Shown one piece after another: positions 9,976-49,845 of a stretch of 52,116 nt of DNA. Position 1 is the first letter of the stretch, and each line of letters starts with the position of its first letter. A program made the translations under genes and the position numbers. The DNA is from a virus. The notes under the pieces were generated by a model. It saw nothing but the letters and a program-made list of their open reading frames with translations. It ran no database searches and was not told where the DNA came from. The stretch lies in IMG/VR virus record IMGVR_UViG_3300006141_000023, one strand, 5' to 3'.

Positions 9976-10326
9976 TTATTTATTAAATGGTTTCTTCAAT
10001 AGTGCGTATCCGTTGCCGTACTCCAGCTTCTCGTATCCACGGCTTATGTAGTGGTCGAGCATCCACGTCGGGGTGTCTGCCGCTTCCCATTCGAGGTACA
10101 CCGCGCTGAGTCCGTTGTTACGGGCAATCGTCTCCGCTTTGTTAAGCAGTTCTTTGGCTTTGCCCTCTTTCCGGCAGTAAGGCTGCACCCATAGGTTGTG
10201 GATAAATGCGCCTATGCCGTACTCTCCCTGTGGCTGCGTGTAGATGTCGAGCTGAACACTGCCGCCGTCGGTTATGAGTAGGTAGAGGGTTCTTTTTGAC
10301 CATGTTTGTTTTTGGATTTGTATCAT
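9976..10326 (-). CDS. GNAT-family N-acetyltransferase
   Basis: LWVQPYCRKEGKAKELL (R-x-x-G-x-A acetyl-CoA motif) followed by a YxxxGY-type C-terminus. Confidence 0.6.
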   Translation of the reverse strand: MIQIQKQTWSKRTLYLLITDGGSVQLDIYTQPQGEYGIGAFIHNLWVQPYCRKEGKAKELLNKAETIARNNGLSAVYLEWEAADTPTWMLDHYISRGYEKLEYGNGYALLKKPFNK

Positions 10327-10508
10327 TGATTTTTTGTTTGAATTATTTTTGTTCGGGTCTCCGATTTGCCGCCGAGCCGCTTTCCCTCTACCGTCGAAGC
10401 CCCTTGCGCAACACGTGCTGAAACCTGCCGGGGCAGTGGATATTTACGAGGGGAGGTCAGTTGTTCCATTTGCGGATGTGGCAGTCTCTCTGGCTGAGTG
10501 CGGTCGTA

Positions 10509-10862
10509 CTACTTGCTTGCGGCTGTGTCGGAGGTTACCTTTCTGAGTTGGTCTTTGAGTTGAATTAATTGCAGGAGCAGTTGGGAGATTGCGGATTTTT
10601 GTCTCTTGATTTTGTCCTTGACATCACCGCGCTTCTTGTTGCCGCTGTAATCTGCGATTGAAGCGAGAGCGTTCATATATCGGTCTCGTTCTTCCCGGAG
10701 TTGGTCGTTCTCCGCTTGGAGCTGCGCTATCAGTTCCTTTTGTCTGCGGTCGTATGCGTGGTACTCCTTGACAAATTTGTGGAAAAATGCGCCCGACACC
10801 GTGTCGTGGTATCCGATGTAAGTACCGAGTGTTTCGGATTGTATCTTGCGGTATTCGTTCAT
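10509..10862 (-). CDS. hypothetical coiled-coil protein (117 aa)
   Basis: ORF in operon context with a heptad-like QLQAENDQLREERDRY segment. Confidence 0.5.
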   Translation of the reverse strand: MNEYRKIQSETLGTYIGYHDTVSGAFFHKFVKEYHAYDRRQKELIAQLQAENDQLREERDRYMNALASIADYSGNKKRGDVKDKIKRQKSAISQLLLQLIQLKDQLRKVTSDTAASK

Positions 10863-15606: not shown

Positions 15607-16983
15607 TTATAGTGTCGCAACAATGGATTTACGCAGCCGCTCGTTCCGGCTGTTCCATTCGAAGGTTCGTATCATCCATTGCTTGTAATCTGATGGAATG
15701 TCCTTAATTCTTTCCCCTTTGTATTTGCCAAAGGGCATTATTTCGATTGGTGGTTCTTGTTTCGTATCGATTGCCGTCGTGTCCTCTCTTGTGTACTTGC
15801 CGATTTGGTCGATGGGTATGCCGGAGAGAAGCACTCCTCCTGTGCCGAAAAGCCGCCACATCTTGCCCTGCTCGAATACCAAGTCTTCAATTCTGCCGAA
15901 CCGCTTCACGTTCCCTCCGAGGTCAACGATGAGTGCGTCTTCCTTGTCGGGGTCTATTCGTGTGGCGCGTCCGAGGATTTGGTAATAAAGGGCTATTGAG
16001 GCGGTGCTGATACCGAGGACGATGCAGTCTATCTTGGTGTAGTCAAATCCTGTAGAAAGCACCCGGACATTGAACAGCACCCGGAGTCTCCCTGCCCGGA
16101 AGTCTGCGATGTTCTGTTCTCGCTGTGCTTTGTCCATGTCTCCGTAGATGACCGCTGAATGTGGATAATGCTCGGAGAGGGCTATTGCGTCCGCTACGCT
16201 TGGCGCAAAGGCGAGGATATGCTTTCGGTCGGGATTGCTGTCAAGGGCGCGTATGATTGCGTCTGTGCCGCCGTTTGCGTCGTATGCTCGCTGTACGCTG
16301 TCCTCGGTATATTCGCTCTTGCTGCTGTTGAATACGAGGAGGCTGTCATCGAACCCCTCGGTCTGGTATCGCAGCTTGCACCAAAATCCGAGGCGCACCA
16401 TTTCCTGCACCTGTCCTACATGGATTATCTCTTTGAAGAAGTTCCCTTTCTTACTCCGGCTCGTCAGCATGACAAGTTTGGAGTATGTACCTCCGTCTCT
16501 GTCACGATTCGTCTGCAATTTGACCGGGGTTGCGGTTATGCCGAGGACGTGCGTAATTCCGCTCTCTTGGAGGAAACGTCCGAGCATTGAGTCTGCTTCT
16601 CTTGGATAAAGGTGCGCTTCGTCTATGAGCATCTTCGTGAAGCCGTGTCTCTTGAATTCCGCACCGAGGTTTTTGATTGAGCCGATGGTCGCGTATGTAA
16701 TCTGTGCCATCTCTCGTTTCCCGAAGCTCGCGCTGTAAATCCCGGCATTGCTCCCGAAGCCACCGCAGAGGGTATCGTACTTTCGGAAGTTCTGCTCAAG
16801 CAATTCTTTTGATGGCTGGAGGACGATGAGCTTGTCGGTCGTGTTCTTTGCCACAAAAGCCGTGAGGATTGACTTGCCCCATGCCGTCGGCAGGACTATG
16901 AGGCTCGGCTTCGGTTTCTTCTCTTGGAAGAAAGCGATTGCTTTGCGTATTGGTTCTTCTTGGTTTTCCCGGAGTGTAATCAT
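15607..16983 (-). CDS. SF2 DEAD/DEAH-box helicase
   Basis: LPTAWGKS (motif I), LIDEAHL (DEAH), GITATP (motif III) and a C-terminal MPFGKYKGERIKDIP tail. The start is set at ATG 16983 (MITLRENQ). Confidence 0.75.
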   Translation of the reverse strand: MITLRENQEEPIRKAIAFFQEKKPKPSLIVLPTAWGKSILTAFVAKNTTDKLIVLQPSKELLEQNFRKYDTLCGGFGSNAGIYSASFGKREMAQITYATIGSIKNLGAEFKRHGFTKMLIDEAHLYPREADSMLGRFLQESGITHVLGITATPVKLQTNRDRDGGTYSKLVMLTSRSKKGNFFKEIIHVGQVQEMVRLGFWCKLRYQTEGFDDSLLVFNSSKSEYTEDSVQRAYDANGGTDAIIRALDSNPDRKHILAFAPSVADAIALSEHYPHSAVIYGDMDKAQREQNIADFRAGRLRVLFNVRVLSTGFDYTKIDCIVLGISTASIALYYQILGRATRIDPDKEDALIVDLGGNVKRFGRIEDLVFEQGKMWRLFGTGGVLLSGIPIDQIGKYTREDTTAIDTKQEPPIEIMPFGKYKGERIKDIPSDYKQWMIRTFEWNSRNERLRKSIVATL

Positions 16984-17139
16984 TTCGTAAAAAAGTAATG
17001 CTCCGCAGGTAGGGCTAACCACGCACTACAGCCGCGTCGGGAGTCCTTTCGGTCTTCCCACCCATGTGCGGAGCAAATATTTTCATTCTTTTTCATGTCG
17101 TCGTTTCGGTTATCGCAACCATGTATGATTGGGAGGTAA

Positions 17140-17372: not shown

Positions 17373-18323
17373 TTATTTGAGCAGAAGTCTTCGCGCTCCC
17401 TGTACTTGGTGCGTGTATGCGGCAGCAAGGTCGGGGTGTTCGGCGACAAAGGCTTTATCGTCGAATTTGTTGCTTGGCTTCGGGGCTTTCCATGTGGCGA
17501 TGGTGTCTCCACCGTAGGAGAGTGCTTCTGCGTCTTCAAAAGCCATCTTCAGGGTTGCTTCAAGACTTTCCTTGCGCTCCTTGAGTGCGTCGAGTTCTTT
17601 CTTGACCACCTTGAGGTCTTGGTATGCCGAGAAGACCTCCTCGCTACACTCGATGATTTTCCCTCCTGTGTGGCGATTGTATTTGATGAGAACGTCGGCT
17701 ACGTTGACCGCGCTGGGTTCTTGACCTCCTACGATGTTGTCAGTCCAAAAGCGCGAGACGGAGTCGATGAGCCACTCGAAGAAGTCAGGCACGAGCTTGA
17801 GGTCTTGGTATCCGAAATCGAAACCTTGTCCGGCTGAAAGCCATGCGAGGCTACCCTGCGTATATCCGGCTACACCGAGCTGATACTGCACCTGCGCAAA
17901 CCAATATTTAGGGAGGTCTTCCGGGTCAACTTTCATGCGCGTGGTCTTGATTTCGAGGATGCCCTTATTGTCGTTGGCTCGGCTATCGTCTGAGAGCCAA
18001 TAGGTGCGGTCGGGGCTTACTTGGAGATAGGGACGGTCGTTGTCTCGGATAATCCAATCGATCGCGCTGCGCTTGATGATTTCGCGTCCTGTCGCGTCGT
18101 TCCACATCCGGCTGACTGCGTCTTCGAGGTGGTGTCCGTTGCGCATGGCTGCGTTCTCCTGTTTCGGCTCGTCGAGTCCTGTCTTGCGTCTCCATAGTTG
18201 GTAGGGGGTCTCCCACGGGTTGAGTCCTACGATTGTGGCAACCTCGGAGCTGCCGATTCCGCTCTTGCGGATTTCGAGCCATTCTTCACGGCTCTTGGGT
18301 CTGATGATGGTTACGTTGCTCAT
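17373..18323 (-). CDS. YqaJ/lambda-Exo-like recombination exonuclease
   Basis: WLEIRKSGIGSSEVATIVGLNPWETPYQLWRRKTG is the YqaJ N-terminal signature. The start is set at ATG 18323 (MSNVTII) because the longer ORF to 18413 overlaps the upstream gene and a hairpin. Confidence 0.75.
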   Translation of the reverse strand: MSNVTIIRPKSREEWLEIRKSGIGSSEVATIVGLNPWETPYQLWRRKTGLDEPKQENAAMRNGHHLEDAVSRMWNDATGREIIKRSAIDWIIRDNDRPYLQVSPDRTYWLSDDSRANDNKGILEIKTTRMKVDPEDLPKYWFAQVQYQLGVAGYTQGSLAWLSAGQGFDFGYQDLKLVPDFFEWLIDSVSRFWTDNIVGGQEPSAVNVADVLIKYNRHTGGKIIECSEEVFSAYQDLKVVKKELDALKERKESLEATLKMAFEDAEALSYGGDTIATWKAPKPSNKFDDKAFVAEHPDLAAAYTHQVQGARRLLLK

Positions 18324-18382: not shown

Positions 18383-18982
18383 TTACTTGCAGAATAGGTT
18401 GAAATCCATCCAAAGGTCGATGAAGGTCTTCCCGGCGTAGTCCGCGAGCTTGTCGCTCTTAAAGCAAAGGCGAGAGCCGAAGGACGCAGTCGTAGACGAG
18501 GGGGCGTAACCCGAGGACGCAAAGGCGAGACCCGCCCATTCCCCTCGGTGGTACTGCATCGTAGTGAGGTGGCGGTCACGCTTCCATTCTTCGCTCTTTT
18601 CGGCGAGTTCCTCGTCTGTGTAGAGGAAAAACCACGGATACCATCGTTCTTCGTCCTGCGTGAACTGAGGCTCCCAGCCCTCGTTGAGTGCTGCCGTGAT
18701 GATGCGGAGCTTGAGGTATGCGACCACGTCGTTGTTGACGTTTGCTCCGGCTTTCTCGCTTTTGTCGTAGATGTCTCGGAACATCTGAACGTAGAGGTGG
18801 TCTTCGCCGAGTTCTGCACAGGCATCCGCGAATGTCTTGATGCGTTCCGTTACCGGGCGGTTGTCTGCCGGAGTGAAGTCGATGTCGGGGTAGAGGGTTT
18901 CGAGTACTTTGCAGGTGCTGTCTGCTCCTGTCTCTTTGGCTACGTTGTACGCCTTGATGATGTTTTCTTTTGTCGTTTCCAT
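18383..18982 (-). CDS. DGR target protein 2 (199 aa, function unknown) carrying variable repeat VR2
   Basis: The segment ...AGLAFASSGYAPSSTTASFGSRLCF is encoded by a 74-80 bp copy of the DGR template repeat in which only template-adenine positions differ. Confidence 0.75.
   Translation of the reverse strand: METTKENIIKAYNVAKETGADSTCKVLETLYPDIDFTPADNRPVTERIKTFADACAELGEDHLYVQMFRDIYDKSEKAGANVNNDVVAYLKLRIITAALNEGWEPQFTQDEERWYPWFFLYTDEELAEKSEEWKRDRHLTTMQYHRGEWAGLAFASSGYAPSSTTASFGSRLCFKSDKLADYAGKTFIDLWMDFNLFCK
18456..18535 (-). repeat. DGR variable repeat VR2 (remote)
   Basis: Ungapped alignment of 18462-18535 to TR 34767-34840 gives 16 mismatches. Fifteen fall at plus-strand T of TR (coding-strand A). 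The remaining one (TR 34772) is shared with VR1. Confidence 0.8.
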
Positions 18983-18988
18983 GTTCTT

Positions 18989-19921
18989 TTATTTTTTGGA
19001 TGATTTCTTGACTTTCTTTACCTCCCCGGTTTCGGGGTCTATTTCTTCAGCTTCGACATCCTCAACCGCCGGGGTAGCAGGGAGGGGGGCTTCGCCTGTT
19101 GCAGCAGCGAGGGCAGCCGCCGCTTTGTCCTTTGCTGTGGTTGCGTTCTTGACCGCTTCCGCTGCCGCCTGTGCTTCTTTCTCCGGGTCGATGAATGTTT
19201 CCTTGACCGTGGTCGTTCCCTCCTCTATGGCATTGCGGAGGGCGCGGAGTTCGAATATCATCCGTTGGTCGATTTCCTCGATGCTCTTGACACCGAGGTA
19301 TCGGAGCAACTGGTCGGTTTTTACCCCCACGCGGTTGTAGTAGGCGATGACGTTCTTGCGGCTCTGTTCGAGGTCGATTGATTGACCCATTGCCACCGCC
19401 TTGACATCATTGATGATTTTCTTGGTTATGGCTTTGGGAATGACTGCGAGGACTGCGTTTCGGAAGGCGATGCTGCTTGCTGCGTTCCCGGTCACAATCT
19501 GCATATCCTGTGAGTAGGTCTTGCCTGTGCGCGTAGTGATGGAGCGTGAGACCTCTTTGCAGACCGCTACGTTGCTTTCGAGGTCATGGCACATCGCCTG
19601 TGCTGTTATCATGCGTCCGTCGTTGCCGATGATTCGTGTCTGAATTCGGAGGTTGCCCCATGCGGAAGCGATGATTTCTGCCATTCGGACTGACAACCCC
19701 TCGATGAGCGAGTCGTTGCCATCTCTGTCCTTACGTCGGAGGACGTAGAAGCAGTCTTCTGCCGTCTCCTTGTCCATCTTGGCGAAGGTGGCGATTTTGT
19801 TCAGCACCTGTGACAAATCGCGTGGGTACTGCTTGGCGGTGGCTATCTGCATATCCACCTCGGTGCGGTTGATTGCTGCGAGCATCTCAGCTTGTTTTAC
19901 TTCGATGATTTCATTTTCCAT
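18989..19921 (-). CDS. single-strand annealing protein (RecT/Red-beta-like, called by synteny)
   Basis: 310 aa in the recombination module containing the YqaJ exonuclease, separated from it only by the VR2 ORF, with an Ala/Glu-rich low-complexity C-terminal tail. The family call is not verified by motif. Confidence 0.45.
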   Translation of the reverse strand: MENEIIEVKQAEMLAAINRTEVDMQIATAKQYPRDLSQVLNKIATFAKMDKETAEDCFYVLRRKDRDGNDSLIEGLSVRMAEIIASAWGNLRIQTRIIGNDGRMITAQAMCHDLESNVAVCKEVSRSITTRTGKTYSQDMQIVTGNAASSIAFRNAVLAVIPKAITKKIINDVKAVAMGQSIDLEQSRKNVIAYYNRVGVKTDQLLRYLGVKSIEEIDQRMIFELRALRNAIEEGTTTVKETFIDPEKEAQAAAEAVKNATTAKDKAAAALAAATGEAPLPATPAVEDVEAEEIDPETGEVKKVKKSSKK

Positions 19922-23815: not shown

Positions 23816-23906
23816 TTATTTTACTCAAAAATCGCCACACGGCGCGTTTGTTGTCTTTCGTGGGTGCTTGTTCCACCCGAAGCCAAACGGCGCGACACGC
23901 GGCAAA
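23811..23906 (-). promoter_or_regulatory. conserved leader element, copy b (antisense to the lysogeny genes)
   Basis: Minus sense: UUGCCGCGUG-UCGCGCCGUUUGGCUUCGGGUGGAACAAGCACCC...CGUGUGGCGAUUUUUGAGUAAAAUAACUA. Confidence 0.55.
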
Positions 23907-23920
23907 ACAAAGGCTATCTC

Positions 23921-33043: not shown

Positions 33044-33152
33044 ATTCTGATGCGGAGTTATTTTATTGGAATTTGCGCCCTGCTGCGTCGTAGTCGTTCA
33101 GATGTGCGGTTGTTCCACTCGACCCGAAACGATGCGACACAGGGGCGCATTT
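33044..33152 (-). promoter_or_regulatory. conserved leader element, copy c (upstream of the 1687-aa tail fibre gene)
   Basis: Minus sense: UGCGCCCCUG-UGUCGCAUCGUUUCGGGUCGAGUGGAACAACCGCAC...CAGGGCGCAAAUUCC-N-AAAAUAACUCC-N11-AUG. Confidence 0.6.
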
Positions 33153-33166
33153 GGCTTCACTGCGGA

Positions 33167-33565
33167 TTACTTGATGCCAAGCTCGACGCAGTCTGCATCG
33201 ACCTGTTCCTTGAGGGTCTTGCGACATTCGAGGAATTCCTTGTATGCCGCGATTCTCTCTTTGGCTTCGTCGCTTGTCTTCGAGCCGCCGACCATGCCGA
33301 GATTGGCTGCGTTAAACTCGTTGACGAGCTTCTGCTCGTGCGAAGCCGGACAGATTGCCGTGATGACCGCTTCCGTGATTTTGTTGGGCGATAGCGGAGC
33401 CCACACGATTACTTCATCGCACTTCCACGAGGTTCGGGTGCTGACGGGTTCGTCTGTTCCCTCGGCATGGATTTCCGAGGTCTGTTCTTCGATGTTGAAA
33501 CGGTAGATGTAACTGCCGTTCCCTACTGCTTCCAAAACGGAAGGCTTTTCGTCATAAAATGCCAT
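33167..33565 (-). CDS. hypothetical protein (132 aa) overlapping the RT stop
   Basis: Overlaps the RT gene by 14 nt, so it is possibly part of the DGR cassette. Confidence 0.5.
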   Translation of the reverse strand: MAFYDEKPSVLEAVGNGSYIYRFNIEEQTSEIHAEGTDEPVSTRTSWKCDEVIVWAPLSPNKITEAVITAICPASHEQKLVNEFNAANLGMVGGSKTSDEAKERIAAYKEFLECRKTLKEQVDADCVELGIK

Positions 33566-34622
33566 TTTGAAATTCGGGTTTAATTATGGTTTTTAATAAG
33601 TGCTTGCTGTTGCTGTGCTGCGCCCAACCGAGCCACGATGCGACTCTCTGCTTGTAGTCGGCAAGTGAAATGTCGTTGCGTTTGTTGAGCTTGGCTACGG
33701 TGCGGCAGAAGTTCTGCTTGATGCTCTTGCGTATCAGCTTCTGTTCCCGGTAGAACTTATATCCAACGAAATCGAGGGCGCGTCCGTGGCGGTCTTCCCT
33801 GTTCTTGGCGAGAGGGAAGATTTGCCAATTGCCCTTTATCTCAAGTTCAAGCTCGTTCTCAATGAAAGGCTTGATGTGTTCAAAGAACATTCGGCGAAGC
33901 CATTCCGGGCTTGTGCCGTAGAACGCGAAATCGTCAGCGTATTCATCTACGTCGATGCGCCATTCCTCATTGCATAGGTGCATGAATACTGCAAAGACAA
34001 GGTTGGCAAGGTACTGCGACAAATAATTCCCGATGGGGAGGTTTTCTCCGTCGCATATCTCGTCCCTGCGCACTGGGTGGGGAGTACCGTTCACGCTGTC
34101 GATTATCTCGTCAATCAGCCATAGAGTGTCAGGACATTTGATTTTCCACCTTGCGGCTTTCTTCAGAACCTTGTGCTTGAGCGACGGGTAGAACTTCTTG
34201 ATGTCGATTTTGAGGATGTAGAGGGGTTGTCCGTCGTACTTGCGGATGTGCCGCTCGACGCTTCGAGCGCATCCCTCTATTCCTCTGCCTTTGACGCAGG
34301 AGTATGTGTTGTGCGTAAAGGCTGCGACCCATATCGGTTCGAGAATGTTCATTATTGCGTGATGAACTATTCTGTTGGGGTAATATGGAAGACGGTAAAT
34401 CAGCCGTTCTTTTGGCTCATAGACCGTGAATACTTCGTAGGCTGAGGTTTTGTATGTCCGGGTTAGCAACGCTTCGTGCAGGGCTTCAAGATTGGCTTCT
34501 CGGTTTCGATCATGATGCCGCACTCCGTATGTGCGGTGTTTCCCCCGGCGAGCCTTTTGGTCAGCCAGCCGGAGGTTCTCCACCGAGATTATCTTTTCGT
34601 ATAAGTTTCCTATACGCTTCAT
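33552..34622 (-). CDS. DGR-type reverse transcriptase
   Basis: YADDFAFYG catalytic box and the IGNYLSQYLANL motif ([LIV]GxxxSQ, typical of DGR RTs). It lies 145 nt downstream of the TR. Confidence 0.9.
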   Translation of the reverse strand: MKRIGNLYEKIISVENLRLADQKARRGKHRTYGVRHHDRNREANLEALHEALLTRTYKTSAYEVFTVYEPKERLIYRLPYYPNRIVHHAIMNILEPIWVAAFTHNTYSCVKGRGIEGCARSVERHIRKYDGQPLYILKIDIKKFYPSLKHKVLKKAARWKIKCPDTLWLIDEIIDSVNGTPHPVRRDEICDGENLPIGNYLSQYLANLVFAVFMHLCNEEWRIDVDEYADDFAFYGTSPEWLRRMFFEHIKPFIENELELEIKGNWQIFPLAKNREDRHGRALDFVGYKFYREQKLIRKSIKQNFCRTVAKLNKRNDISLADYKQRVASWLGWAQHSNSKHLLKTIIKPEFQNGIL

Positions 34623-34766: not shown

Positions 34767-34882
34767 AAGCAGAGGTGAGAGCCGATGTTCGCATTCGTAT
34801 TCGAGGGGGTGTTATTCGAGTTCGCATAGGCGAGACCTGCATTCGCACCGTTATTCGCGTTACCGCTGAACAGGACACCACG
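34767..34882 (-). repeat. DGR template repeat (TR)
   Basis: 116 bp. Ungapped match to VR1 (35372-35487) and, over its 3' 74 bp, to VR2. The coding sense is rich in AAC/AAT codons. Confidence 0.9.
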
Positions 34883-34908: not shown

Positions 34909-35277
34909 TTATTCAAAATAAAACCTGTTGCCGTTTGAGCGAAGCGTAACCTTACGAGGAAATGCGTCGCGCTTCTGTATCTCTTTGAGGACATAAAGGA
35001 TTTCGGCAGACCCTGTGAAAAATTTCTGCGATTCAGATTCCGGGCTGTCCTTGCTCGGTCGGATTTGCACGAGTGTCTGTCCTGCCGTTCCTTTCTGCTT
35101 GCTGAAACGGGTGGGGATGTCTTCAAGGAATTTGAAAACCCAGAACGAAGTGTTCACAATCTTCGACTGCTTGATTTCGTCTCCGATGAGGCTTCGGCTG
35201 TTCTCGTCTCTTGGGATTCTGAGGAAGGCAAGGCTTCCGTCATCTACTCCCTGCTGTACGTTGTCTTCATTGTTCAT
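34909..35277 (-). CDS. DGR accessory-position ORF (122 aa), not obviously Avd-like
   Basis: It occupies the slot between the target gene and the TR where avd normally sits. The sequence does not look like a basic four-helix bundle. Confidence 0.45.
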   Translation of the reverse strand: MNNEDNVQQGVDDGSLAFLRIPRDENSRSLIGDEIKQSKIVNTSFWVFKFLEDIPTRFSKQKGTAGQTLVQIRPSKDSPESESQKFFTGSAEILYVLKEIQKRDAFPRKVTLRSNGNRFYFE

Positions 35278-35310: not shown

Positions 35311-35347
35311 AGACCCTGCTCCCCATCGGGGGACGAGGAGCGAGGGT
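35311..35347 (-). other. imperfect GC-rich hairpin 12 nt after the stop of DGR target 1
   Basis: gaccctgctcc...ggagcgagggtc forms an outer stem with one bulge. Confidence 0.5.
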
Positions 35348-35358
35348 CGGGGGTCGTG

Positions 35359-36801
35359 TTAATCGGGTAAAAAGCAAAGGCGAGAGCCGACGGACGCAGT
35401 CGCATCCGAGGGGGCGGTATGCGAGCGCGCAAAGGCGAGACCCGCACGCGCACCGCCATACGCGCTACCGCCGAACAGGACACCACGGAGCGTCTCTGCT
35501 GTGGGTATGTTCGTGTAGTGATAATCGCAGAAGAACGTGGTGCTTCCACCGCCTGTGCAAAGGGTCGGCATGATGTCACCCTCCTCGCCGAAGATTATCT
35601 CCTTGACATATCCATCGGTTCGGGCTTCATTGCCTACGTGGTGGTATCCGTCGTATCCGTTGTCCTTAAACTTGGAGGGGTCGGAGCAGACGAATACCTT
35701 GCTCAGTTCGTCTCCGCCGTTGGCTGCTGTGGGAGAGATGCGGACGTTGATGCCGTCTGTCCACTGCCAAATATGACCGAAGGGGTTCTCTACGCCACGA
35801 TAGCGAGGAACGGAGACAGAGACGGTGGTGGCGTTGTATTCCGAGGGCATATCGAATGAAACAACGCCTGTGCCGTTGCCGATGCTGTCCGTATAACCGC
35901 AGGGAATAAAGGGATAGTAGCCGTTGAAGGTGTTCCACTTTCCTTCGTCGAGTGTTGTCACACCTGCACCGAGACCGCCCTGCTTATAGCCCTCGGTGGT
36001 CGGCTCTGCGTTAAATGCCGCCTGTGTATTGAGGTTGGCATATTCGACCACGAAGAGCCAATAGAGGGTCTTCTGTACATCGTAGGTCATGCAGTTCCAT
36101 TCGGTGGAGTTAGCCTTGCGGTTTCGGGCGTAGGTTCTGAAATTCGTGCGGCTGATGGAGGTCGCCGGGACACCGAGTTGTGTTTTTGCTGTGCCGTCGA
36201 GAGTAGCGTTGTTGTTGCCGCCACGGTAGTCTGCGGTGTTATTGGCTACGGATGCCAGCTTGTTGGTCGAGCGTTGTACGGTGGCTTCGTATGCCGAAAC
36301 GTAGCACTTGGGGACTTGATGGTATCCGGGCAGCGGAAATTCTGAAAGCATAACGCGCTGTTTGTTTCCGTCCGTGATAAAGCGGCGGTAGTGCAGAGGA
36401 ATTTCTACCATGACCTGTCCGTGCGAGCCGTCGCGGTGCTGTCCTGTCCAGTTTTTGGGGTCGAGGTATTCGACCACTTCGCCCTCATCATTGAGGAGGA
36501 CACCACGCATCCTGTTATGGATTGGGAGCGATTTGTGTAGGGCTACACTGCCGATGCGTGTGCAAACCGAGGAACTTACCGTCTTGTCTCGCTCGATGCC
36601 GTATGCGCACTGTTCCTCAAGATATGGGAGGAGGGTAGCGAGTGCTGCTTTTTTGCTCTCGCCGTCGGTGTCGAGAACCTCGACGTAGAGGTCATAGGGA
36701 TTTGTCCCTTTTACGTTTGGCAAGTCGGAGATCCGCTTGCCGTTCTGAAACGCTTCGATCAGTTGTTTGAGAAGCGATTCTTCTGCTGCTGTAAATGCCA
36801 T
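35359..36801 (-). CDS. DGR target protein 1: receptor-binding/tail fibre protein with C-terminal variable region (C-type-lectin-like expected)
   Basis: 480 aa. The C-terminus ...GVLFGGSAYGGARAGLAFARSHTAPSDATASVGSRLCFLPD is encoded by VR1. Confidence 0.8.
   Translation of the reverse strand: MAFTAAEESLLKQLIEAFQNGKRISDLPNVKGTNPYDLYVEVLDTDGESKKAALATLLPYLEEQCAYGIERDKTVSSSVCTRIGSVALHKSLPIHNRMRGVLLNDEGEVVEYLDPKNWTGQHRDGSHGQVMVEIPLHYRRFITDGNKQRVMLSEFPLPGYHQVPKCYVSAYEATVQRSTNKLASVANNTADYRGGNNNATLDGTAKTQLGVPATSISRTNFRTYARNRKANSTEWNCMTYDVQKTLYWLFVVEYANLNTQAAFNAEPTTEGYKQGGLGAGVTTLDEGKWNTFNGYYPFIPCGYTDSIGNGTGVVSFDMPSEYNATTVSVSVPRYRGVENPFGHIWQWTDGINVRISPTAANGGDELSKVFVCSDPSKFKDNGYDGYHHVGNEARTDGYVKEIIFGEEGDIMPTLCTGGGSTTFFCDYHYTNIPTAETLRGVLFGGSAYGGARAGLAFARSHTAPSDATASVGSRLCFLPD
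35372..35487 (-). repeat. DGR variable repeat VR1
   Basis: There are 22 mismatches to TR over 116 bp. Twenty-one fall at TR plus-strand T (coding-strand A). The one exception is at TR 34772, in the 3' invariant block. Confidence 0.9.
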
Positions 36802-46648: not shown

Positions 46649-46756
46649 TTTCGTGAGTTATTTTCTCCGAATTTGCCCTCTGTGGCGTTTTGTCGTGCAA
46701 ATGGTATGGTTGTTCCACCCGACCGAAAGAAGCGCGACACAGGGCAACACACGGGG
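46649..46756 (-). promoter_or_regulatory. conserved leader element, copy d (upstream of the gp10-like gene)
   Basis: Minus sense: UUGCCCUGUG-UCGCGCUUCUUUCGGUCGGGUGGAACAACCAUACC...CACAGAGGGCAAAUUCGGAGAAAAUAACUCA-N6-AUG. Confidence 0.6.
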
Positions 46757-49155: not shown

Positions 49156-49845
49156 TTAGAAAGGCTGATTACCTGCGGCAGGGATGCCCTCTCGATGCGA
49201 GATTGCAGCTTTCTGCGCTTCGGTGAGTTCAGTCTTGTTCTGTGCGCCTGTTGACGCGGAAGGTTTGCCGAAGACAGCCCCTTGTGCTGCCGTATCGTCA
49301 GCGATGCCCTCGACCTCGGTCGTGATGTCTGCGATAAGGGTGTTGAACTCCTCGGCAGAATATTTGTCGATAGGGAGTCGCTCATAAGCCTTACGCATGG
49401 GTTCGGGTAATTTGCCTATTACGGCGTTGAGTTGCTGGGTTCGGGTTTCGGTTGTCTTGGCGGTCTCCATGCGTTCGATACGCTCGATGAGTGTTCTCGC
49501 CCATGCAGGAGTCTCGTCAGTTCCCCCGGTTGTTGGGTTGGTTGCGCTGCCGCCTGTCGGCTGCTCGCCCCCGGTCGTTGTGGTTGTGGTCTTCACTCCG
49601 TCTTTCAGTCCGTAGCGGCTCTCGTATTCCTGCACCGCGTTCTTGCGAGCGGTTTCGGATGCTTCGGTCGCTCGGCTGTCGCCGTAGCTTTCGATGACCT
49701 GCTGAATGGTCACTCCCTCTACTGCGGTCTTGACCTGTTCTGCTGTTGTGGCAGTCTTCGCGAGCTTGGTCGCTATCCTGTCGAGAATGCTGTCGCTGAC
49801 CCCCGGAAATTTGGCTTTCAGCGCATCAAATAATTCTTTTTTCAT
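49156..49845 (-). CDS. scaffolding protein
   Basis: 229 aa, helical and Ala/Glu/Thr-rich. It is the first gene of the structural operon. Confidence 0.5.
   Translation of the reverse strand: MKKELFDALKAKFPGVSDSILDRIATKLAKTATTAEQVKTAVEGVTIQQVIESYGDSRATEASETARKNAVQEYESRYGLKDGVKTTTTTTGGEQPTGGSATNPTTGGTDETPAWARTLIERIERMETAKTTETRTQQLNAVIGKLPEPMRKAYERLPIDKYSAEEFNTLIADITTEVEGIADDTAAQGAVFGKPSASTGAQNKTELTEAQKAAISHREGIPAAGNQPF

Follow-up and report, generated by a model that had tools for sequence, protein, structure and literature searches.

A second, actively diversified DGR target encoded among replication and recombination genes of a Bacteroidota temperate phage may act inside the host cell

The window, by which we mean the whole 52,116-nucleotide stretch of DNA that was analysed, holds a circular assembly of ~52,039 bp in which positions 1-77 recur at 52040-52116, and corresponds to JGI contig Ga0081461_1001645 of sample 3300006217. 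It is the genome of a 52-kb temperate phage that occurs as a prophage of Duncaniella/Muribaculaceae; we call the phage temperate because an integrase gene is present and its relatives are integrated next to trmE. The locus considered here is a minus-strand open reading frame, ORF2, together with the genes that flank it and a short repeat within its coding sequence. Its features are as follows.

15607 to 17022, minus strand: SF2 helicase gene of the same putative early operon (ResIII and Helicase_C domains; called genes on near-identical contigs)
17373 to 18323, minus strand: YqaJ/lambda-exonuclease family gene immediately downstream of ORF2 (PF09588, E 1.3e-23; phrog_434; TIGR03033)
18383 to 18982, minus strand: ORF2, the 199-aa second DGR target protein (ORF listing; phrog_11581; exact sequence identical to WP_287117905.1 of Duncaniella sp.)
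18462 to 18535, minus strand: VR2, a 74-nt variable repeat that corresponds to the 3' 74 nt of the template repeat and codes for residues 150-174 of ORF2 (gapless alignment)
18462 to 18480, minus strand: 3' block of VR2, a putative IMH, identical in VR1 and differing from the template repeat at two bases
18989 to 19921, minus strand: 310-aa gene that ends 6 nt upstream of the ORF2 start, a possible annealing protein (phrog_3657, unknown function)

The genome carries a single DGR, all components of which lie on the minus strand. It consists of a reverse transcriptase (RT), a 122-aa accessory protein and a 116-nt template repeat (TR), adenine-mutagenised copies of which are written into two variable repeats, VR1 at the C-terminus of a tail-type protein and VR2 in ORF2. 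The cassette comprises the following features.

33552 to 34622, minus strand: DGR reverse transcriptase (RVT_1; phrog_1423, E 6e-108; single ORF)
34767 to 34882, minus strand: TR, 116 nt with 27 coding-strand adenines (repeat search and alignment)
34909 to 35277, minus strand: 122-aa basic accessory protein between VR1 and the TR (phrog_19665; pI 9.0)
35312 to 35348, minus strand: strong hairpin downstream of VR1 (DNA fold -14.2 kcal/mol, z -2.2)
35359 to 36801, minus strand: target 1, a 480-aa tail-type protein with VR1 at its C-terminus (phrog_5302 'tail protein', E 1.2e-133)
35372 to 35487, minus strand: VR1, 116 nt, with 22 differences from the TR, 21 of them at adenines

The TR is positioned 145 nt upstream of the RT, which is 32-46 % identical to the RTs of crAss-like phages and to BPP-1 Brt in tblastn comparisons. 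The accessory protein has no match in Pfam or NCBIfam and was not recognised as a member of the Avd family; it is homologous (E 1e-6) to a 98-aa ORF that adjoins the RT in other cassettes, and is thus conserved beside related RTs.

VR2 lies 16.3 kb from this cassette and is templated by the same TR, as the original prediction had claimed. A gapless alignment of 18462-18535 with TR positions 34767-34840 contains 16 mismatches, 15 of which are at plus-strand T of the TR, that is, at coding-strand A, while the remaining one is a G/A difference at 34772; the predicted coordinates and counts were exact on recount. Given that A occupies 18 of the 74 TR positions, the probability of finding at least 15 of 16 mismatches at A is 7.6e-9. 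A repeat search of the window independently recovered VR2, TR and VR1 as a three-copy family. The coding-strand 3' 19-mer is TCGGCTCTCGCCTTTGCTT in both VR1 and VR2 versus TCGGCTCTCACCTCTGCTT in the TR, so that the two VRs do share an identical 3' block that includes the 34772 G/A difference. This is the pattern expected if the VRs carry an IMH and the TR an IMH*, and we regard the homing role of the block as putative. Allowing up to 3 mismatches, the VR-end 19-mer has 5 matches in the window versus 0.04 expected; a search with this 19-mer and with the TR identified no third VR in the 52-kb window. A weak match at 49672 was considered as a third VR and rejected, its 35 of 116 bases identical to the TR being a chance level of agreement.

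VR1 and VR2 differ from one another at 10 positions, every one a TR adenine, in agreement with the independent diversification that had been proposed for them. At the sites mutated in both VRs, the same base is present in 7 of 12 versus 4 expected, a difference that is not significant (P ~0.07, hand binomial). The VR1 and VR2 of the window have four of ten variable residues in common, and a comparison by eye of three other VR2 alleles with VR1 gave 3-4 of 10. Co-selection of the two VRs or gene conversion between them was dropped as an explanation on these figures, the P value for shared bases and a residue sharing that lies within the range of other alleles. The peptide encoded by VR2 is AGLAFASSGYAPSSTTASFGSRLCF and is followed by 26 further residues of the 199-aa protein, exactly as first described; its theoretical repertoire is ~2.9e9 peptides. 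VR2 spans merely 74 nt of the TR because an 11-residue stretch at the VR 5' end, found in relatives such as P0064 and P0084, is missing in the lineage of the window. A downstream hairpin of the BPP-1 type, which is not a universal feature, is absent after VR2 (z -0.09, DNA fold) versus z -2.2 after VR1.

VR2 is actively diversified and has been rewritten many times in nature, solely at TR-adenine positions. A contig from a separate sequencing run (L005) can be aligned with the window over 17,053 nt at 99.8 % identity; of the 33 differences, 11 fall inside the 74-nt VR2, all 11 of these at TR-adenine sites (Fisher tests: 8e-19 for VR2 versus the rest and 8e-9 for A versus non-A sites within VR2). 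Among the 15 near-identical proteins in the protein collection, defined as those with at most six changes outside the VR, there are 12 distinct VR peptides. Variation is limited to ten columns, which coincide one for one with the A-bearing codons of the TR (Y, N, N, N, T, N, T, N, N, I); the other 15 columns are constant, and the residues found in the variable columns are those permitted by A-to-N changes, for example C/F/S/Y at the TAT codon. An alignment of 25 wider relatives shows the same pattern, with the flanking scaffold almost invariant. It is unlikely that these VR2 alleles are assembly chimeras with VR1 reads, because the flanks of the VRs differ. The original prediction had named an invariant VR2 beside a varying VR1 as the sign of a dead relic; VR2 is instead highly variable among near-identical genomes, and at TR-adenine sites only. 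Diversification is nonetheless episodic: the ORF2 sequence of the window (WP_287117905.1) is found unchanged in 158 index blocks and its target-1 protein likewise in 23 contigs, so one pair of alleles is stably inherited in a widespread lysogen. A search for paired VR1/VR2 alleles from relatives, based on a pattern of both VR ends, returned no stretches from IMG/VR, one short contig from the metagenome collection and none from the species genomes.

ORF2 matches phrog_11581, a family of unknown function, over its full length (residues 2-197, E 1.7e-65) and has no significant match in Pfam, NCBIfam or PADLOC; DUF4088 was considered and set aside, its E value of 0.011 falling short of its cut-off. 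Database searches recover 6,324 proteins at E <= 1e-5, and the 50 %-identity clusters number 2,826 at E <= 0.001 and 292 at E <= 1e-30. Single 90 %-identity clusters of homologues contain 11,135 to 37,449 distinct sequences, a diversity within clusters that is as expected of a hypermutated protein. Prophages of Muribaculaceae, Prevotella, Bacteroides, Phocaeicola, Alloprevotella and Rikenellaceae carry members of the family, as do environmental Bacteroidota and Ignavibacteria. The numerous relatives of ORF2 are small proteins (about 125-270 aa) that serve Bacteroidota phages as DGR targets, either as remote second targets or as tandem targets beside the RT. A scan of IMG/VR for the VR-end 19-mer identified 37 tail-type targets and about 90 small targets; many of the small targets form tandem pairs or triples directly upstream of an RT and the 98-aa accessory ORF, and several contigs hold both a tail-type and a small-type VR. 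When the sequence up to 10 kb from family members was searched for a TR in 80 species genomes, only paralogous modules emerged and no clean TR/VR pairs. Megablast detected no close relative of the region in the phage collection, and homologues of ORF2 are present in nine records of the INPHARED phage collection.

The gene neighborhood of ORF2 had been described as a recombination module in which ORF2 is encoded between a RecT-like gene and a YqaJ exonuclease gene. The exonuclease downstream is well supported by its three family assignments (PF09588, phrog_434 and TIGR03033). For the upstream 310-aa gene, searches of Pfam, NCBIfam, PHROGs and PDB sequences revealed no RecT, Erf or Red-beta signature, and its product bears no similarity to the recombination protein of Versailles, a cultured relative discussed below; given that no annealing-protein family matches it, the name 'RecT-like' is a guess from gene position that no family search supports. 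The broader claim that ORF2 belongs to a replication/recombination operon outside the virion module is upheld. ORF2 is tightly packed in this region: only 6 nt separate it from the upstream gene, and its strand has no terminator-like site. A scan for promoters and terminators gave results not above shuffled expectation, with a sigma-70 model that is unsuited to Bacteroidota.

This neighborhood is conserved. Near-identical and related contigs have a constant order of the 310-aa gene, ORF2, the YqaJ exonuclease gene, the helicase gene, a gene encoding a Lin1244_N domain and a primase-helicase gene. Among 80 species-representative genomes, the 310-aa gene is found near a family member in 19 (immediately upstream in 16), a YqaJ gene in 17 (downstream in 14) and an RT within 10 kb in 13, usually directly downstream; of the 80, 19 preserve the succession of 310-aa gene, target, YqaJ and helicase. 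Cassettes with small targets beside the RT are likewise located in early regions: one is composed of a methyltransferase, a primase, three targets and the RT (L013), a second of an exonuclease, two targets, the RT and a replication initiator (L085), and a third of Mu-like transposase A and B, Gam, two targets and the RT (L106). Only transposase genes and targets are visible in a fourth (L033). The small family was never found in a tail module, and in every annotated context it is surrounded by replication, recombination, transposition or DNA-modification genes.

We modeled both ORF2 and P0084, a relative that is 68 % identical to ORF2 and has a VR spanning the whole TR. The AF2 models (pLDDT 72.6 for ORF2 and 80.2 for P0084) are each confident for a mostly helical N-terminal region and for two helices at the C-terminus, and in both the VR segment is unmodelled, with pLDDT <50. 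Foldseek comparison of these models with the PDB produced no match, and comparison with BFVD retrieved uncharacterised gut-phage homologues only. A sequence profile search of the PDB with ORF2 found no match, a negative that carries no information since the canonical tail target likewise matches nothing. When ORF2 was compared with the 37 tail-type targets using hhalign, only the 38-aa VR was aligned, with a probability of 98.4, which falls to 0.2 when the VR is removed. Homology is thus confined to the VR, and we conclude that the VR cassette is common to the two proteins but that the ORF2 scaffold is not detectably related to the domain of the tail target. The VR of C-type lectin targets is C-terminal; the VR of ORF2 is followed by 26 residues, which make up the two confidently predicted helices, and across the family 23-36 residues follow it, so its position is atypical. 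A lectin domain has been reported in the Quimbyvirus homologue on the basis of HHpred (Benler 2021, PMC8008677). No C-type lectin scaffold could be shown for ORF2 by sequence comparison and by AF2 models in which the VR is unmodelled. We raise tentatively, and consider on balance unlikely, the wider possibility that phrog_11581-like proteins are a distinct non-C-type-lectin DGR scaffold that presents a hypervariable loop between a helical N-terminal domain and a C-terminal helical hairpin, and that they are made early as cytoplasmic, evolvable binders of host defence or takeover targets; in that case a host-range determinant that acts after entry would be a routine target of Bacteroidota phage DGRs, besides or instead of a receptor-binding protein.

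For ORF2 itself, we hypothesize with a probability of roughly 60% that it is a cytoplasmic hypervariable binder that acts after DNA entry, with the DGR rewriting both VRs. We infer 'early' and 'intracellular' from synteny, from a reading of the sequence by eye that found no signal peptide or hydrophobic N-terminal segment, and from an acidic and hydrophilic composition (pI 4.8, GRAVY -0.54); a cytoplasmic post-entry role is placed first because the gene context is uniform. We envisage, on the model of BPP-1, that the RT would copy the TR into cDNA, that the shared 3' block would guide this cDNA to one or the other VR, and that upstream homology would resolve it. ORF2 would be co-transcribed with the early replication/recombination genes and would remain in the cytoplasm as a soluble acidic protein with a hypervariable loop on a mostly helical scaffold. 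There it may bind a variable intracellular partner, and most likely it would neutralise or evade a host defence or takeover target after DNA entry. The DGR would thereby diversify both adsorption, through the tail, and a post-entry determinant of host range. Speculation that the distal target is involved in host conflict is already found in Benler 2021 (PMC8008677) and in Dahlman 2025 (PMC12629997).

Several observations count against this proposal. ORF2 matches no PADLOC family, VR2 does not have the downstream hairpin of VR1, exact alleles recur and are stable in the lysogen, and the VR segment is unmodelled in the AF2 models (pLDDT < 50). A single TR for both VRs also fits binding of the same kind of ligand as that of the tail protein, such as a surface glycan.

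This last point leads to an alternative that we regard as unlikely, in which ORF2 binds its ligand outside the cytoplasm, either as a minor virion adhesin or tail accessory protein or as a decoy or receptor blocker that is released at lysis and directed at the surface-ligand class of the tail protein. It is consistent with the derivation of both VRs, and of the same type of loop, from one TR; with the presence of small family members as the sole targets seen beside the RT in some phages and in environmental Bacteroidota; with the receptor-binding proteins that phage DGRs are best known for diversifying (PMC8144416); and with the general lack of signal peptides in phage DGR targets (PMC6199706). 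However, the gene is located in replication, recombination or transposition modules in all annotated contexts and never in tail modules, ORF2 is tightly packed into its putative early operon, and no part of it other than the VR is detectably homologous to the tail target. The two VRs also show no sign of co-selection, the 4 of 10 variable residues that they share being within the 3-4 of 10 of the three other alleles.

Expression from the prophage is a further alternative, which we consider quite improbable: ORF2 would protect the lysogen as a hypervariable protein that senses or excludes phages or mobile elements entering the cell. The phage is temperate, with an integrase and relatives integrated next to trmE, bacterial DGRs have been linked to anti-phage defence (cited in PMC12629997), and the Quimbyvirus homologue has been placed among defence and counter-defence genes (Benler 2021, PMC8008677). 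Nevertheless, the orientation and spacing of ORF2 are those of a lytic replication/recombination operon, the 6-nt upstream gap leaves no space for a promoter of its own, and no PADLOC family is matched. Finally, it is exceedingly improbable that rewriting of VR2 by the DGR has ceased, whether because the repeat is a decayed relic or because it arose as a single recombinational copy of VR1. Its 5' truncation (74 of 116 TR bases), the missing hairpin and the widespread occurrence of the exact VR2 allele of the window are outweighed by an intact 3' block identical to that of VR1, an open reading frame with an almost invariant flanking scaffold, eleven A-site differences from a 99.8 %-identical genome and 12 VR peptides among 15 near-identical proteins that vary only at A-containing TR codons, population data that exclude this reading.

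A cytoplasmic binder that acts after DNA entry, the reading that we favor, would bear on how phage DGRs are understood. They are usually explained as tools for receptor switching; the presence of an actively diversified second target among early replication/recombination genes in several unrelated Bacteroidota phage groups suggests that targeted hypermutation also serves something inside the cell. Remote targets are probably under-counted as a class because large DGR surveys could not detect them, as was the case for the survey of Roux 2021 (PMC8144416). In gut phages, no genomic feature correlates more strongly with broad host range than carriage of a DGR (PMC12636319). If proteins of the ORF2 type bind host defence or takeover factors, this would help explain that correlation and would provide a natural, compact scaffold for evolving intracellular binders. 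The window offers a clean and testable case: its 52-kb genome is complete, the host genus is known, natural alleles on an isogenic background are numerous, and Versailles, a relative of the same design, is in culture.

The original prediction considered a DGR-diversified protein of this kind unusual. ORF2 is indeed a non-structural remote target, but such targets have precedents in Quimbyvirus (PMC8008677) and in the four gut prophage species of Dahlman 2025 (PMC12629997), and ORF2 is homologous to the LoVEphage-type target. In the Quimbyvirus DGR described by Benler 2021, one VR belongs to the structural module and the other to a remote ORF that is non-structural, and a role in phage-host conflict was proposed (PMC8008677). 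Dahlman 2025 reports four induced human-gut prophage species in which a second VR is distal from the RT and near counter-defence genes, and gives Benler 2021 and the LoVEphage paper as joint references for one and the same phage (PMC12629997). Tentaclins are two-target cassettes of another kind (PMC10743442). In a limited literature search we did not see the family-level picture, the cassette-proximal tandem forms in early regions, the VR-restricted homology or the conserved non-Avd accessory protein.

Among the closest published parallels are Quimbyvirus and LoVEphage, which as in the window use one RT and one TR for two VRs, one in a tail-module protein and the other in a remote small protein. 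The LoVEphage-type protein BI-TP1 gp84 is a full-length homologue of ORF2 (34 % identity over 97 % of its length). In LoVEphage, BI-TP1 and PV4-TP1 the homologue is encoded beside a TIGR02757 nuclease, methyltransferases and a tRNA ligase, the remote target of this type lying among nucleases, methyltransferases and tRNA ligase, and its VR is present in three copies per genome. These systems differ from the window in several respects: they are phages of 71-75 kb on Bacteroides/Phocaeicola, whereas the window is 52 kb and Muribaculaceae-associated; their RT is frameshifted, whereas that of the window is a single ORF; their target is beside methylases, whereas ORF2 is between the 310-aa gene and the YqaJ exonuclease gene; and VR2 of the window corresponds to only the 3' 74 nt of the TR. 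The prophages of Dahlman 2025 are similar in having a remote second VR in Bacteroidota temperate phages, a feature that is read as part of a phage-host arms race (PMC12629997). That paper does not appear to define the target family or to test its fold, and our comparison with these prophages is by description, with sequences compared for the LoVEphage-type genomes only.

Versailles (ON453897), cultured on B. caecimuris, has the same design, with VR1 in a tail protein next to the TR and RT and VR2 in a homologue of ORF2. This 193-aa homologue (10181-10762, 33 % identity to ORF2) is encoded after SbcC-like, recombination and NinB genes and before a replisome organiser, and it is annotated as 'tail protein', probably owing to the similarity of its VR. 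The Versailles repeats are VR2 at 10550-10661, the TR at 53831-53938, which adjoins the RT, and VR1 at 53629-53736 in the tail protein. The VRs differ from the TR at adenines except at two positions in the 3' block that are common to both VRs, one of which is also a TR adenine. Unlike that of the window, Versailles VR2 covers the full 108-nt repeat.

The DGR of Bordetella phage BPP-1 (Mtd, Avd, TR and Brt) shares with the window adenine-specific mutagenic retrohoming from TR to VR, a VR-specific 3' element (IMH versus IMH*) and an RT that is 32 % identical. In BPP-1 the only target is a virion protein encoded next to the cassette, its VR is C-terminal and part of a C-type lectin fold, the accessory protein is Avd, and a hairpin follows the VR, whereas the window has a remote non-structural second target with 26 residues after its VR and no detectable lectin scaffold, an accessory protein that is not recognisably Avd and no hairpin after VR2. 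The nd4/nd12 tentaclins resemble the window in that one TR diversifies more than one gene and a shorter VR2 uses part of the TR; however, both of their targets are within the cassette and are interpreted as receptor-binding proteins (PMC10743442). Remote targets of bacterial DGRs, such as those of Treponema denticola, also have one TR serving more than one gene, but these targets are surface or secreted proteins (PMC10743442, PMC5758913). A distal, non-structural second DGR target has therefore been published as a kind, and the window adds to it a member from a different phage group and host family that is encoded in a replication/recombination operon.

Small genes of the ORF2 family, to which the 199-aa second DGR target protein of this phage belongs, occur in other loci as tandem pairs or triples with one variable repeat (VR) per gene, and one protein of the collection (P0410) is a fusion of two ORF2-family modules. 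The tandem genes lie in the early region in all four loci, where their neighbors are primase and methyltransferase genes, exonuclease and replication initiator genes, or Mu-like transposase genes:

Locus L013, 5555-6786: tandem ORF2-family genes directly upstream of RT
Locus L085, 6510-7357: tandem ORF2-family genes directly upstream of RT
Locus L106, 9686-10527: tandem ORF2-family genes directly upstream of RT
Locus L033, 992-1821: tandem ORF2-family genes

Upstream of ORF2 in the window is a gene encoding a 310-aa protein (18989-19921, (-)), whose position beside ORF2 homologs and YqaJ is kept in many genomes. Its product matches no known annealing-protein family, and could be an unrecognized recombinase partner of the YqaJ exonuclease.

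The first 19 nt of VR2, the variable repeat of ORF2 (18517-18535, GCGGGTCTCGCCTTTGCGT), are identical at 16 of 19 positions to its terminal 19-mer, the putative IMH (18462-18480), so that the truncated VR2 has an IMH-like sequence at one end and the true 3' block at the other; the IMH-like start may be connected with the origin of the 5'-shortened repeat. Approximately 23 nt past VR1, the variable repeat of the tail-type target, is a strong GC-rich hairpin (35312-35348, (-); -14.2 kcal/mol, z -2.2), for which a folding comparison within the window revealed no counterpart at VR2 or the template repeat. Four ORF2-family proteins (P0144, P0159, P0197, and P0267) are natural alleles with in-frame duplications or a one-residue insertion within the VR; imprecise homing, or the assembly of hypervariable reads, could have produced these changes. 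The window's ORF2 falls in a 90%-identity cluster together with 292-310-aa sequences of the neighboring gene, and the cluster's count of 544 members is therefore no measure of VR2 diversity.

The usual position of Avd in the DGR cassette is occupied by the following ORF:

34909-35277, (-): 122-aa basic protein (phrog_19665, pI 9.0)

This ORF lacks the Avd signature and is homologous (E 1e-6) to a 98-aa ORF found near RT in 27 IMG/VR loci; its product appears to be a conserved DGR accessory protein, an alternative to Avd.

A repeat search of the window identified an exact terminal direct repeat of 77 nt (1-77 = 52040-52116); the contig represents a genome of ~52,039 bp that was assembled as a circle. 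An element of ~97 nt is spread over this genome in three to four copies (6737-6833, 33055-33151, and 46655-46751, repeat families D4, D5, and D14, with a partial copy at 23865-23909), and possibly acts as a common promoter or regulatory sequence.

A homolog of ORF2 is also present in a named phage:

Bacteroides phage Versailles (L003; ON453897), 10181-10762: ORF2 homolog WAK79127, annotated in the record as 'tail protein'

The neighbors of the Versailles homolog are recombination and replication genes, and its label probably derives from the resemblance of its VR to those of tail-type DGR targets.
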